Below are positions 5,402-16,628 of a stretch of 43,003 bases of DNA, one piece after another. A program made the translations under genes and the position numbers. Numbering within the stretch: position 1 is the stretch's first letter; each line of letters begins with the position of its first letter. Under the pieces are notes generated by a model. It was not told the origin of the DNA. It ran no database searches and was given only the letters and a program-made list of their open reading frames with translations. The DNA is from a virus (Duplodnaviria; Heunggongvirae; Uroviricota; Caudoviricetes). The stretch is taken from the IMG/VR virus record IMGVR_UViG_641522624_000003, one strand, 5' to 3'.

Positions 5402-5459
5402 AAAAAGGGCGGCAGAGCAGTCACGGAGTAAAACTGATACCGCCAAACGTCACCAGAAA
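5402..5459 (-). ncRNA. dicF: DicF small regulatory RNA
   Basis: Minus-strand sequence TTTCTGGTGACGTTTGGCGGTATCAGTTTTACTCCGTGACTGCTCTGCCGCCCTTTTT matches my memory of DicF including its terminal hairpin and U-tail; located between ydfC and dicB. Confidence 0.8.
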
Positions 5460-10741: not shown

Positions 10742-11199
10742 GAGAGGTTAACTATGAGGCGCTTCGTGAGGCAGCACAAAACTATCAGTCGACGCTGGCG
10801 TGGTATCAGGCTATCCCGGACAGCCCAAATGCTGAACGGGATTGTGATGCGGCTCTTGCTGCGTTTAAGCGTCACATCCGTCATCGGGAAGCGGATATTA
10901 TCGCTGATTTGCTGGATGGACTGGAAGAAGCAAAATCACAACTCAAAGAGCAGCGTGAGTATTACGAAGGCGTTATCTCTGATGGGAGCAAGCGTATTGC
11001 TGAACTGGAAGCGCGGGAAGTTCAATTACCGACTCGCTACGACCTTCGATATGGACACCCGATAAATGCAGATGAGCGACATGTCATGATACCTAAAGAA
11101 AATGGCAGTTGGCTTTACCTGATTGACCTAGAACACGCATTACGCGTCTCTGGCATTCGCATCAAAGGAGAGGAGCATGGAAATAAAACCAGAGGATGA
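10738..11199 (+). CDS. Hypothetical phage protein
   Basis: 153-aa ORF translationally coupled (ATGA overlap) to the upstream gene; no recognisable domain. Confidence 0.4.
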   Translation: MREVNYEALREAAQNYQSTLAWYQAIPDSPNAERDCDAALAAFKRHIRHREADIIADLLDGLEEAKSQLKEQREYYEGVISDGSKRIAELEAREVQLPTRYDLRYGHPINADERHVMIPKENGSWLYLIDLEHALRVSGIRIKGEEHGNKTRG

Positions 11200-11533
11200 G
11201 TTAAGCAATATCGTTTTATTTCCGGTAAAAGAGGATGACCCTCGTAATCAGGTTAATTTTCTTTATGAGCCATCGGAAAGACCATATTGTCATCACGCCT
11301 CTGTCCGGGTTGACGAAAAAGAGCGTCAGGTCCGCTGTAAAATCTGCGGTGCAGTTGTGGAGCCATTTGACTGGATGCTCTCTGTGGCGAAAAGAGAAAC
11401 CAGACTGGCAGATGATGTAAGGCTCTTGCGTCAGGAGGAGCGGGAAAGGCGAAAAAATATAGAAAAGCTAATTCAGATTGAGCGTAACGCGAAAGCGCGG
11501 ATACGCAGGGCGACAAAATCCAGAACTGAATAA
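11177..11533 (+). CDS. Hypothetical protein with CxxC zinc-ribbon-like motif and basic C-terminal tail
   Basis: 118-aa ORF; C..H...CKICGAVVEP then an Arg/Lys-rich helix. Confidence 0.4.
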   Translation: MEIKPEDELSNIVLFPVKEDDPRNQVNFLYEPSERPYCHHASVRVDEKERQVRCKICGAVVEPFDWMLSVAKRETRLADDVRLLRQEERERRKNIEKLIQIERNAKARIRRATKSRTE

Positions 11534-11626
11534 TTAAATTTAGCTCTGTTAAAAATTTAATCCTTAACCGGAGGGATTTCTGCACCCTCAGAACATCAGG
11601 AGGCCGCCCGAAAGGGCGGTAGTTAA

Positions 11627-11809: not shown

Positions 11810-11978
11810 TTTTGGTTCAACTAAATATAACGCCAGTTTTGAAGAATGGCATGAACTGTTAATGGATTATGCAGAGTTACGCGGTGGAAGTGCCGCTGAT
11901 GCTGAAGCATGGCGTGATGATTATGAAGCAGGGAAAACACCGGTCGAAGCATATTGTGATGAGTGGGGCGATGAATGA
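11802..11978 (+). CDS. Small acidic protein (58 aa)
   Basis: Hand-translated MADFGSTKYNASFEEWHELLMDYAELRGGSAADAEAWRDDYEAGKTPVEAYCDEWGDE; overlaps neighbours by ATGA-type junctions at both ends; below the ORF-track cutoff. Confidence 0.4.
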   Translation: MADFGSTKYNASFEEWHELLMDYAELRGGSAADAEAWRDDYEAGKTPVEAYCDEWGDE

Positions 11979-12490
11979 GCGAGATTAATTATCAGGAAGG
12001 GCATGAAAAGGCAGGGCAGGCAAAACCAGTGGCATGGCGATATCGCTACGTGAAAAAAGGCGTTACGGACTTTCAGGAGAATCTGTGGGTTGGTGACTGG
12101 AAATATGTACCGACAAAAGAGGATTGCAACGACAGGCCGAACTATGAAATTCAGGCCTTATTCGCTGCCCCGCCAGTTCCGGTGACATCAGAAGGACTGG
12201 TTAAAGCCGTGCGCTTTTATGAACAGGTAAAGCGTGAGAATCCACCAGTCGAAACAGGAGTATGGAAAGATGCTGTTGATTGGGTTCTCAAAGAGGCCTG
12301 CTGTGCTGTCATTCTGGGTAAAGCCGACAATCCATTAGCATCCAGTAACCAAGTTGGCGAATTAACAATGTGGGTTAAACGACTGGTCAGTCAACTGAAA
12401 AAAGCTAATCCAGACTGCAAATTACCGGAGAAGGCGATGGACTACCTGAAGCGGAACGAACTGATAAGCGCGGAGGATGTTTTGCGATGA
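11975..12490 (+). CDS. Hypothetical phage protein
   Basis: 171-aa track ORF, coupled to upstream and downstream ORFs. Confidence 0.4.
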   Translation: MSEINYQEGHEKAGQAKPVAWRYRYVKKGVTDFQENLWVGDWKYVPTKEDCNDRPNYEIQALFAAPPVPVTSEGLVKAVRFYEQVKRENPPVETGVWKDAVDWVLKEACCAVILGKADNPLASSNQVGELTMWVKRLVSQLKKANPDCKLPEKAMDYLKRNELISAEDVLR

Positions 12491-12570
12491 CCTGGCCTGA
12501 AGCATTCACAACGGTAGGAATTGCAATAGCGGTGGCGCTGGTGGTGTATTCGATTTGCCACTGGATGTGA
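12487..12570 (+). CDS. Small hydrophobic peptide (27 aa, single predicted TM helix)
   Basis: ATGA overlap with the stop of the upstream ORF; MTWPEAFTTVGIAIAVALVVYSICHWM. Confidence 0.3.
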   Translation: MTWPEAFTTVGIAIAVALVVYSICHWM

Positions 12571-12732
12571 GGTATTAAAAAAACGCCCCGCACACAGACG
12601 TTGAGCGCCTGAGATGTGGGGATAGGGAGTTAGTTAAATAGTTATACAACAATACCTGATTTTATATTGAAGCAAGAAATAGGTTGCTACATATTGAACC
12701 ATGCGCATGTACGTCAAATATGGGAGGTCATC

Positions 12733-12822
12733 GTGCTGGTTCTGAAATGTGCGCTGGCTATTGCGGCAGTAATGGCAATTTATTGTCTTGTTATCGTTCT
12801 TATGAATCACCTCTCTGATTGA
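12733..12822 (+). CDS. Small hydrophobic peptide (29 aa), toxin-like, with overlapping 14-codon leader ORF
   Basis: GTG start 5 nt after GGGAGG; product (M)LVLKCALAIAAVMAIYCLVIVLMNHLSD; upstream ORF MRMYVKYGRSSCWF (12701-12745) overlaps the start; AT-rich promoter-like region upstream. Confidence 0.3.
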   Translation: MLVLKCALAIAAVMAIYCLVIVLMNHLSD

Positions 12823-13033
12823 TTTTATATTGGCGAGGTGACGTGAGTTAAGTAGAATTGCTGCGGGTGCTTGAGGCTATCTGCCTCGGGCATGAACACC
12901 AACGGCAGATAGAGAAAAGCCCCAGTTAACATTACGCGTCCTGCAAGACGTTTAACATTAATCTGAGGCCCAATCTATGCTTCACAAACGTAGGTTAGCC
13001 TCTTACGTGCCGAAAGGCAAGGAGAAGCAGGCT

Positions 13034-13189
13034 ATGAAGCAGCAAAAGGCGATGTTAATCGCCCTGATCGTCATCTGTTTAACCGTCATAGTGACGGCAC
13101 TGGTAACGAGGAAAGACCTCTGCGAGGTACGAATCCGAACCGGCCAGACGGAGGTCGCTGTCTTCACAGCTTACGAACCTGAGGAGTAA
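13034..13189 (+). CDS. hok: Hok/Gef-family type I toxin (51 aa)
   Basis: Product MKQQKAMLIALIVICLTVIVTALVTRKDLCEVRIRTGQTEVAVFTAYEPEE carries the Hok/Gef signature (TM helix, conserved C, EVAAF-like motif), recalled as HokD/RelF-like; an in-frame upstream ATG at 12977 gives the 70-aa track ORF. Confidence 0.8.
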   Translation: MKQQKAMLIALIVICLTVIVTALVTRKDLCEVRIRTGQTEVAVFTAYEPEE

Positions 13190-13257
13190 GAGACCAGGCG
13201 GGGGAGAAATCCCTCGCCACCTCTGATGTGTCAGGCATCCTCAACGCACCCGCACTT

Positions 13258-13284
13258 AACCCGCTTCGGCGGGTTTTTGTTTTT
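13258..13284 (+). terminator. Rho-independent terminator after hok
   Basis: Hairpin CCCGC-TTCG-GCGGG followed by TTTTTGTTTTT. Confidence 0.55.
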
Positions 13285-13409
13285 ATTTTCAACGCGTTTG
13301 AAGTTTTAGATTGTGCCGGAATAGAATCAAAAATACTTAAGTAGCGCGCAGGGAGAAGAGGGATGGACCCCGAACAGGGGAGTGCTATTTATCTGGAAGG
13401 ATTCTGTTG

Positions 13410-13670
13410 ATGAAAATCGAAGAATTACGTGAAATTTTTAGTGAAGATGGCCTCTATACTGTGCGCGTTGAGAATGGCGCTATTGTCAGCCACTGCCGTA
13501 TTAAATGTTTACAGTCTCAACAAAGGAAGAGTGGAGCTGCGTTAATTCATTTTGTGGATGGGCTTGTGACGGATGGTTTTATTTTGCGTGCAAATGAATT
13601 TGTCACATCGTTGCCGTCTCTGAAAGAAGCTGGGATTAAGGCTGGTTTTTCTGCTTTTGAAGATGAGTGA
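13410..13670 (+). CDS. Hypothetical phage protein
   Basis: Track ORF 13407..13670; no recognisable domain. Confidence 0.4.
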   Translation: MKIEELREIFSEDGLYTVRVENGAIVSHCRIKCLQSQQRKSGAALIHFVDGLVTDGFILRANEFVTSLPSLKEAGIKAGFSAFEDE

Positions 13671-16318: not shown

Positions 16319-16394
16319 GGCCCTTTAGCTCAGTGGTGAGAGCGAGCGACTCATAATCGCCAGGTCGCTGGTTCAAATCCAGCAAGGGCCACCA
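16319..16394 (+). tRNA. tRNA with anticodon CAU (Met or lysidine-dependent Ile2)
   Basis: 76-nt cloverleaf: acceptor GGCCCTT/AAGGGCC, D stem GCTC/GAGC, anticodon loop CTCATAA, T-loop GCTGG-TTCAAAT-CCAGC, 3' ACCA. Confidence 0.7.
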
Positions 16395-16395
16395 G

Positions 16396-16472
16396 CCGCC
16401 ACTAGCTCATCAGGAAAGAGCGTCAACCCTTTAAGTTGAGTGTGCGAGGTTCGAGTCCCCGGTGGCGGTCCA
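16396..16472 (+). tRNA. tRNA with atypical anticodon loop CCTTTAA (C at position 33); nominal anticodon UUU, Arg(UCU)-like backbone; isotype uncertain
   Basis: 77-nt cloverleaf: acceptor CCGCCAC/GTGGCGG, D stem GCTC/GAGC, anticodon stem TCAAC/GTTGA, T-loop CGAGG-TTCGAGT-CCCCG, 3' TCCA. Confidence 0.5.
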
Positions 16473-16474
16473 GT

Positions 16475-16550
<76 letters not shown>

Positions 16551-16553
16551 TAT

Positions 16554-16628
<75 letters not shown>

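Follow-up and report, generated by a model that had tools for sequence, protein, structure and literature searches.

Whether three small hydrophobic open reading frames (ORFs) lying side by side in a prophage form a cluster of toxins is the question raised by an 800-bp region of the IMG/VR virus record IMGVR_UViG_641522624_000003. The record, a stretch of 43,003 nucleotides (nt) which is called the window here, is a lambdoid prophage adjoining tRNA-Ser and mtfA of Escherichia coli. A first-pass annotation, made from the sequence alone, had read positions 12487-13284 as a group of three membrane-toxin-like genes, consisting of two peptides without annotation (ORF1 and ORF2 in the following) and a toxin of the Hok family. 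All three ORFs were located as described there:

12487-12570, plus strand: ORF1, ATG start, 27 amino acids (aa), MTWPEAFTTVGIAIAVALVVYSICHWM; a single-helix membrane peptide with a grand average of hydropathicity (GRAVY) of 1.32.
12733-12822, plus strand: ORF2, GTG start, 29 aa, VLVLKCALAIAAVMAIYCLVIVLMNHLSD; hydrophobic, with a single predicted helix.
13034-13189, plus strand: hok; Pfam HOK_GEF PF01848 with 81.6 bits (cutoff 22), phrog_251 with E = 2.8e-33, hokD in the Prokaryotic Genome Annotation Pipeline (PGAP).

We consider it probable that the 800 bp hold three independent genetic units and not a three-toxin cluster, namely a hokW-type locus, an ORF2 cassette and an ORF1 cistron. In our judgement the two upstream ORFs are real but ordinary small membrane-protein genes. 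Within 12487-13284 the PGAP annotation comprises hokD only. Small ORFs are common in this part of the prophage, with 52 ORFs of at least 20 aa in 3 kb, and the case for ORF1 and ORF2 therefore must rest on conservation. For ORF2, a pattern scan of IMG/VR provided 99 related copies on viral contigs, representing 30 distinct nucleotide versions, and for ORF1 108 viral-contig copies from the same database were used. Prevalence was counted in 5426 complete E. coli genomes; the query for ORF2 was the segment 12708-12822 with a coverage of at least 80%.

The cassette of ORF2 includes the following signals:

12667-12695, plus strand: promoter-like site, -35 TTGAAG (12667-12672), 17-nt spacer, -10 CATATT (12690-12695); predicted transcription start at about 12702.
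12722-12727, plus strand: Shine-Dalgarno (SD) sequence GGGAGG, 5 nt upstream of the GTG.

The GTG start codon was present in all 99 viral-contig copies and the stop codon was identical in 98 of them. Among 59 unique sequences the -35 and -10 elements, a GTACGTC motif and the SD sequence were kept, and the promoter spacer was variable; the -35 element was lost in about 10 of the 99 copies. Variable columns were distributed over the codon positions 1/2/3 as 9/5/18 (binomial p = 0.006), and the ratio of non-synonymous to synonymous polymorphism (pN/pS) amounted to 0.32, the lowest value of all six frames (others 0.43-0.99). In the most diverged prophage copy, which has 78% nucleotide identity, the changes comprise 8 synonymous and 5 conservative ones. 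The search for protein homologues was made with the 51-aa TTG-extended form of the peptide; in the 23 ORF2 protein clusters the N-terminal extensions set by gene finders vary and the conserved core is exactly the 29 residues. Because the amino acid sequence is under purifying selection, we take ORF2 to act as a protein, and it is in all probability translated. It is well supported that ORF2 is a real, autonomous small gene, built as a cassette of promoter, SD sequence and ORF. A sigma-70 promoter, a short untranslated leader (about 30 nt), a strong SD sequence and the GTG start would together yield a 29-aa single-pass peptide of the inner membrane. The peptide has a GRAVY of 1.95 (2.92 in the best 17-aa window) and a polar acidic C-terminal tail; this tail and K5 suggest a topology with the N-terminus inside and the C-terminus outside.

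Other readings of the ORF2 sequence were tried and rejected. A minus-strand ORF running over ORF2, which is annotated as a coding sequence in phage HannyBb, occupies the codon-aligned antisense frame, has a pN/pS of 0.70 and is interrupted in many copies; it is open only because the sense strand of ORF2 is free of TTA, CTA and TCA codons. The wobble-aligned antisense frame is closed by ATT-TAT. A diverged Hok was discarded as well, with no HOK_GEF signal at E values up to 1.

ORF2 DNA was detected in 1789 of the 5426 complete E. coli genomes, and the annotated feature is 'none' among the matches listed; in the RefSeq record of this prophage ORF2 is likewise unannotated. Its taxonomic range covers Escherichia and Shigella only. 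ORF2 was also seen on short contigs (L249, L250, L251) in metagenome-assembled genomes labelled Candidatus Scatousia, Haemophilus and Collinsella, which are probably E. coli phage contamination.

ORF1 is a gene of a different type, which follows directly on an accessory gene:

11975-12490, plus strand: accessory gene of 171 aa (PGAP WP_001289982.1; phrog_660 with E = 5e-73), the TGA of which (12488-12490) overlaps the ORF1 start.
12472-12477, plus strand: SD sequence GGAGGA of ORF1, 9 nt upstream of the ATG.

That the 27-aa peptide is coupled to the last accessory gene, as proposed in the first-pass annotation, was borne out by the comparison of copies. An ATGA overlap with the upstream stop codon was found in all 108 copies, 100 of which lie behind an upstream ORF of at least 60 aa, and the upstream gene differs from copy to copy (PHROG 660 protein, DUF551, Ea22-like or HNH-associated). 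A breakpoint of mosaic homology is situated exactly at the ATG (hits H44-H46). The full 27 aa of ORF1 are intact in 101 of the 108 copies, its deletion variants that retain the C-terminal motif preserve the frame (23 and 25 aa), and its pN/pS is 0.39. A tblastn search located the peptide in 101 phage records. Among them are 933W, VT2-Sakai and BP-4795 and, as distant cases, Klebsiella phages, whose version (MDWPTAF...) overlaps the upstream stop codon as well. ORF1 DNA is contained in 1607 of the complete E. coli genomes with up to 7 copies per genome. Neither the RefSeq record of this prophage nor that of 933W, where ORF1 lies between ST933Wp77 and sokW, annotates it; occasionally it appears in databases as 'bacteriophage protein', as 'hypothetical' or mislabelled as 'DUF551, partial'. 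Behind ORF1, the 108 copies continue with hok (45), with ORF2 and hok (6), with hok at a different spacing (2) or with other DNA (55).

We think it quite likely that ORF1 is translated. Translation would proceed by ATGA overlap and SD coupling, with ORF1 as the last cistron of an accessory operon of the ead/Ea22/DUF551 type, and on induction the peptide would be made together with phage early genes instead of being expressed from its own promoter; the layout of the coupling is observed, the timing presumed. A promoter scan revealed no promoter-like site upstream of ORF1. The layout of a type I toxin gene, with its own promoter and an antisense RNA, was not found for ORF1, which is a coupled, operon-terminal cistron. 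A fusion of the 171-aa protein to ORF1 by -1 frameshifting was rejected, as no variant contains a slippery heptamer.

Neither upstream peptide has a family match in Pfam, NCBIfam, PHROGs or PADLOC, in agreement with the earlier remark that they resemble nothing that can be named. For ORF2 there was no match with E < 0.01, the best being ATP synthase subunit c with 13.9-15.9 bits (cutoff 116). ORF1 gave noise only, such as the LydA holin with 16 bits (cutoff 28.4) and phrog_4612 with E = 0.019. As to the possibility that both are chance ORFs beside hok, the conservation of the two peptides and the purifying selection acting on them (pN/pS 0.32 and 0.39) speak against it.

Are the two peptides additional type I toxins? 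For ORF2 the elements concerned are:

12701-12745, plus strand: 14-codon 'leader' ORF with ATG start and no SD sequence, overlapping the start of ORF2.
12851-12822, minus strand: sole minus-strand promoter-like site at ORF2, TTAACT, 18-nt spacer, TAAAAT.
12621-12578, minus strand: terminator-like hairpin (12586-12621) with a T7 run (12578-12584), from the terminator scan; fold -18.1 kcal/mol, z = -3.3.

ORF2 shares with the type I toxins that it is a small hydrophobic membrane peptide. It might be a new member if a cis-antisense RNA of about 235 nt, running from the minus-strand promoter-like site to the terminator, covered the ORF2 mRNA and repressed its translation or stability. Such an arrangement would fit the size, hydrophobicity (GRAVY 1.95) and polar tail of ORF2, which are like those of TisB-, ZorO- or DinQ-type toxins, its own promoter, and its place beside hok and, in other prophages, next to AbiH-type defence cargo. 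Promoter-like site and terminator are both present in the window, and the same promoter-like site recurs in strain G3/10. We nevertheless regard a type I toxin of this kind as unlikely, since the antisense elements are not conserved with the gene. Most copies have a degenerate -10 element in the antisense promoter (TGAAAT or TATGAA). Other DNA takes the place of the whole site in 10 hok-less copies, and the virulence plasmid of Shigella (pINV, see below) carries it in degenerate form, although ORF2 is intact in both; the scan did not detect the site in phage HannyBb, which keeps ORF2. The minus-strand terminator is tied to the junction between ORF1 and ORF2 (segment 12571-12707), which occurs in only 24 complete E. 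coli genomes. On the plus strand the same hairpin (12578-12621) is preceded by an A-tract and not followed by a T-tract. As an observation apart, this strong minus-strand terminator lies between ORF1 and ORF2, yet there is no minus-strand gene nearby.

No structure is conserved along the minus strand of the ORF2 block (alifold -0.39 kcal/mol), the stability of the sense mRNA does not exceed that of shuffled sequences (z = 0.22), the 5' leader of this mRNA measures only about 30 nt, and an Rfam scan of ORF2 at E values up to 10 returned nothing relevant. Pairing of the SD sequence with CCUYUCU at the 3' end of ORF2 is possible in all variants, with about -10 to -17 kcal/mol in prophage variants, where it would suit a translational control, and -7.5 kcal/mol on pINV; its register shifts among the variants without clear covariation. 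Sok was considered as a regulator of ORF2 and dismissed: it is not complementary to ORF2, and the duplex energy is no better than that of shuffled controls. Taken over the alignment of copies and the scans, no conserved antisense promoter, terminator or RNA structure was found for ORF2, and it thus has no conserved adjacent or overlapping antisense RNA.

The first-pass annotation had furthermore credited ORF2 with a promoter-like region of its own, an SD sequence and an overlapping leader ORF that would act in a coupling of the Hok/Mok type. Promoter and SD sequence are kept; the leader ORF exists in only 9 of the 99 copies and for this reason is read as chance. No ATG-initiated overlapping ORF of any kind is present in 77 copies, and the leader's ATG lies at or upstream of the transcription start predicted from the conserved -10 element; the proposed coupling is not supported. 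The same applies to the Sok-like antisense RNAs expected for both peptides, in view of the missing conserved structure and the degenerate promoter at ORF2 and of the missing promoter at ORF1. A type I toxin reading of ORF2 and ORF1 is unsupported, with neither a conserved antisense partner nor a family match. To judge by its sequence, ORF2 would be neither a Mok-like leader nor a classical antisense-controlled toxin, and we would class it as a small membrane 'moron' protein accompanying the prophage hok.

How closely ORF2 and hok belong together is a separate matter. The start of the hok mRNA (+1) lies exactly 132 nt past the ORF2 start in 85 of the 99 copies; 4 more have a diverged hok leader and 10 are without hok. 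The terminator scans located no terminator between the two, so the ORF2 transcript probably reads into the hok leader. As its promoter is of the sigma-70 type and its own, ORF2 is probably transcribed in the lysogen; a LexA box was not seen in the consensus of this promoter. The pair occurs behind varied upstream neighbours including AbiH or DUF4209 cargo on the minus strand, and it thus forms the right-hand boundary of a variable cargo site rich in defence genes. In other loci the slot upstream of ORF2 and hok was seen to hold AbiH and a hypothetical gene, a DUF4209 protein or a 449-aa hypothetical protein (L005 1842-2750, L006 863-2650, L001 734-2083), all on the minus strand.

Such a pair could form a single module in which ORF2 is a partner of Hok, either tempering or potentiating it as an immunity factor or antiholin would, or acting as a co-transcribed second effector. 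The fixed 132 nt without a terminator and the common movement behind varied cargo would agree with this, as would the facts that both are single-pass membrane peptides and that HokW aids lysis on induction (PMC8621323). We hold a partnership to be improbable, however, because each gene is found without the other. Many prophage hok loci have no ORF2: in 933W and in 45 of the 108 ORF1 copies hok directly follows ORF1, and hokW-sokW functions in the 933W-related prophage Sp5. Conversely, ORF and promoter are intact in the 10 hok-less ORF2 copies, where the terminator of a convergent DUF1971 gene comes next. Moreover, ORF2 transcript and hok mRNA share one complementary 8-mer, which equals the chance expectation. 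Neither ORF2 nor hok is dependent on the other.

Further ORF2 copies without a functional hok were found outside of prophages. In total 135 virulence plasmids of Shigella and enteroinvasive E. coli (EIEC) carry an intact, ATG-started version of ORF2, MLVLKGTLAIAAVMTIYCLIVVLMERFSD:

219920-220009 of pCP301 (AF386526.1; 2498-2587 of locus L247): pINV copy of ORF2.
90908-90997 of pWR100 (CP037924), complement: pINV copy of ORF2.

With 77% identity this copy retains the intact 29-aa ORF and the same promoter and SD sequence. It is followed by a decayed remnant of the hok promoter and leader and lies about 290 nt upstream of icsP (sopA). In the inspected records of pCP301 and NZ_CP020087.1 it is unannotated.

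The third unit consists of the following elements around the hok gene:

12830-12858, plus strand: hok promoter, TTGGCG, 17-nt spacer, TAGAAT, from the promoter scan and kept in the alignments; +1 of the hok mRNA at about 12865.
12865-13285, plus strand: full-length hok mRNA with tac, mok, hok, fbi and terminator.
12865-12876, plus strand: tac element, GGGTGCTTGAGG.
12977-13189, plus strand: mok, 70 codons, in frame with hok as in the annotated mokW.
13240-13252, plus strand: fbi element, CCTCAACGCACCC, its complementarity to tac read from the sequence.
13258-13275 and the following T-run, plus strand: hok terminator, from terminator scan and fold.
12915-12985, minus strand: Sok antisense RNA; the annotated sokW misc_RNA of 933W maps here by alignment.
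13020-12992, minus strand: Sok promoter, TTGCCT (13020-13015), 17-nt spacer, TAACCT (12997-12992), read from the minus-strand sequence.

Over the segment 12845-13300, which covers promoter, leader, mok, hok and 3' region, the identity to the hokW/mokW/sokW locus of phage 933W is 94%. An Rfam match to RF01794 (113.1 bits, 12865-13039) was obtained, the model of which actually describes the sense-strand hok leader, and the Sok region consists of a long hairpin followed by CUUUUCUCU (fold -30.2 kcal/mol, z = -4.2). All characteristics of the Hok/Sok family are present, comprising the Hok/Gef domain, the hok leader with the mok frame, a Sok with promoter and hairpin, whose transcription is predicted, and tac and fbi with the terminator. 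The canonical Hok toxin with terminator of the first-pass annotation can thus be placed more precisely: by homology to a tested system, the unit is a complete, already known type I locus of the hokW type. That system, the near-identical hokW-sokW of the Sakai prophage Sp5, is a working type I system in which Sok drops after DNA damage and Hok aids lysis and phage release after mitomycin C (PMC8621323). In the locus described here, Sok RNA (12985 to 12915, minus strand) would pair with the translation-initiation region of mok, to which the translation of hok would be coupled, and by analogy to R1 hok/sok the full-length mRNA would be kept inert by pairing of the 5' tac with the 3' fbi element.

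Two further observations concern the region downstream of hok. Its 3' untranslated region and terminator (within 13198-13327) gave a sub-threshold isrK-like Rfam match (24.9 bits, E = 0.005). A promoter-like site, TTGAAG-18-TAGAAT at 13298-13327, precedes an 87-aa gene (13407-13670, phrog_340), and the same site is found in phage HannyBb.

Our working picture, which we favour over the others without regarding it as settled, is that ORF1 is produced on induction along with the early accessory genes, that ORF2 is expressed from its own sigma-70 promoter in the lysogen and that hok/mok/sok behaves as hokW does. Several points weigh against it. No expression evidence for ORF1 or ORF2 was found: the literature gave no full-text match to peptide fragments, and the supplements on Sakai intergenic small ORFs contain none. 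The differential RNA sequencing table of Shigella M90T (pWR100) lists no transcription start at the pINV promoter of ORF2, a weak counterargument as it concerns one H-NS-silenced copy. The copies all derive from a single genus and from a phage pool that recombines, and their conservation may partly reflect recent spread. The wobble-aligned antisense frame of ORF1 is as constrained as the sense frame (pN/pS 0.35, open in 106 of the 108 copies). The fixed spacing between ORF2 and hok hints at a functional link, and a toxin would be expected to look just like a hydrophobic 29-mer expressed next to a membrane toxin. A small ORF upstream of hok is not mentioned in the Hok survey preprint, the hokW-sokW paper or the Pas small RNA (sRNA) preprint.

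Part of these points would also follow if one or both small ORFs were untranslated and owed their conservation to horizontal spread or to a function as DNA or RNA, be it control DNA of hok, an element at the end of the operon or an sRNA that would span about 85 nt, reaching from the ORF2 promoter to a weak hairpin with U-run at 12757-12786. Beside the missing expression evidence and the narrow range in Escherichia and Shigella, a terminator-like hairpin inside ORF2 that was flagged in two loci is consistent with this, and its common substitutions preserve the pairing by way of wobble. Yet the codon-position bias of 9/5/18 and the pN/pS of 0.32 are specific for the ORF2 frame and extend to the 12 codons past the hairpin, the diverged copies (78% identity in a prophage, 77% on pINV) are still intact 29-aa ORFs, and start, SD sequence and stop are kept. 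For ORF1, substitution patterns alone cannot fix the strand, because the antisense frame is equally constrained. That this frame is open is to be expected, since the peptide has one Tyr and few His or Gln codons. The choice of strand rests on start, SD sequence, stop, coupling, mosaic boundaries and the plus-strand operon context; a 62-aa minus-strand ORF over ORF1 (12405-12593) was rejected as a gene, being the wobble-aligned frame and ending in variable flanks. The ORF1 start always coincides with the upstream stop, whichever gene is upstream, and the indels that retain the C-terminal motif are in frame. We therefore judge untranslated ORFs to be very unlikely.

More speculative, and in our view rather doubtful, is the idea that ORF2 represents a common, overlooked Escherichia/Shigella family functionally tied to the prophage hok, either as a new membrane toxin with non-classical control or as a modulator of Hok-assisted lysis or phage exclusion.

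In the surrounding prophage, integrase, exonuclease, dicB/DicF, ydfABC, repressor and cro, replication genes, DUF1627, DUF977 and DUF4406 are followed by an ead/Ea22-like gene, DUF7167, two hypothetical genes and the region of ORF1, ORF2 and hok, behind which lie DUF968, RusA, Q, four tRNAs, lysis genes and the HK97-type head and tail genes. Replication genes and Q flank the accessory block with the three units. E. coli strain TUM13770 matches positions 12380-13320 with 100% identity, and the remaining window is collinear with this strain except for an IS5 insertion in TUM13770. This IS5-family element (ISKpn26) lies in the ead/Ea22 region (L004 11989-13182), corresponding to about 11131-11561 of the window, which is without the insertion; otherwise the sequences are 99.9-100% identical. 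Elsewhere in the window, a DicF antisense sRNA (Rfam 76.7 bits) was located at 5407-5458 on the minus strand in the neighbourhood of dicB and ydfABC, an arrangement also known from the Qin prophage of K-12, and four tandem tRNA genes at 16319-16625, just downstream of the Q antiterminator gene, which PGAP assigns to Ile, Lys, Thr and Gly in the identical region of TUM13770.

The hok locus, already known, needs no further attention. ORF1 and ORF2 are worth recording for their prevalence and their omission from annotation; they belong to no described family and are good candidates for small-protein annotation sets. The pINV copy of ORF2 sits inside the long and much-studied regulatory region of icsP in Shigella. 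Should ORF2 act together with hok, studies that delete or express prophage hok/sok and ignore the upstream 130 bp may be incomplete, and many prophage loci named 'hok/sok' would be three-gene modules.

Among known systems, the hokW/mokW/sokW locus of 933W has the same promoter, tac and fbi elements, in-frame mok, 51-aa Hok and Sok promoter with hairpin as the locus described here. The two differ in that the 933W locus directly follows ORF1 at the end of the accessory block, whereas ORF2 is located between ORF1 and hok in the window. Measured against what is generally known of the small hydrophobic type I toxins (TisB/IstR-1, ZorO/OrzO, DinQ/AgrB, ShoB/OhsC and Ibs/Sib), ORF2 is alike in size, single helix, polar tail, own promoter and mobile location. 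Unlike them it has no conserved antisense or divergent sRNA gene, its leader is short and unremarkable, and there is no sequence similarity. With Mok, ORF2 has in common that a short ORF overlaps its start in this prophage, but this ORF is absent from about 90% of the copies; ORF1 is coupled by its ATGA, but this is ordinary stop-start coupling to a 171-aa gene and not a regulatory leader. The single-pass small membrane proteins MgtS, AcrZ and PmrR, to which no homology was found, resemble ORF1 and ORF2 by kind only. With these proteins and with prophage 'morons' both peptides share the small size, the one helix and the frequently missing annotation, and ORF2 shares with the 'morons', in addition, an independent promoter inside a prophage operon.

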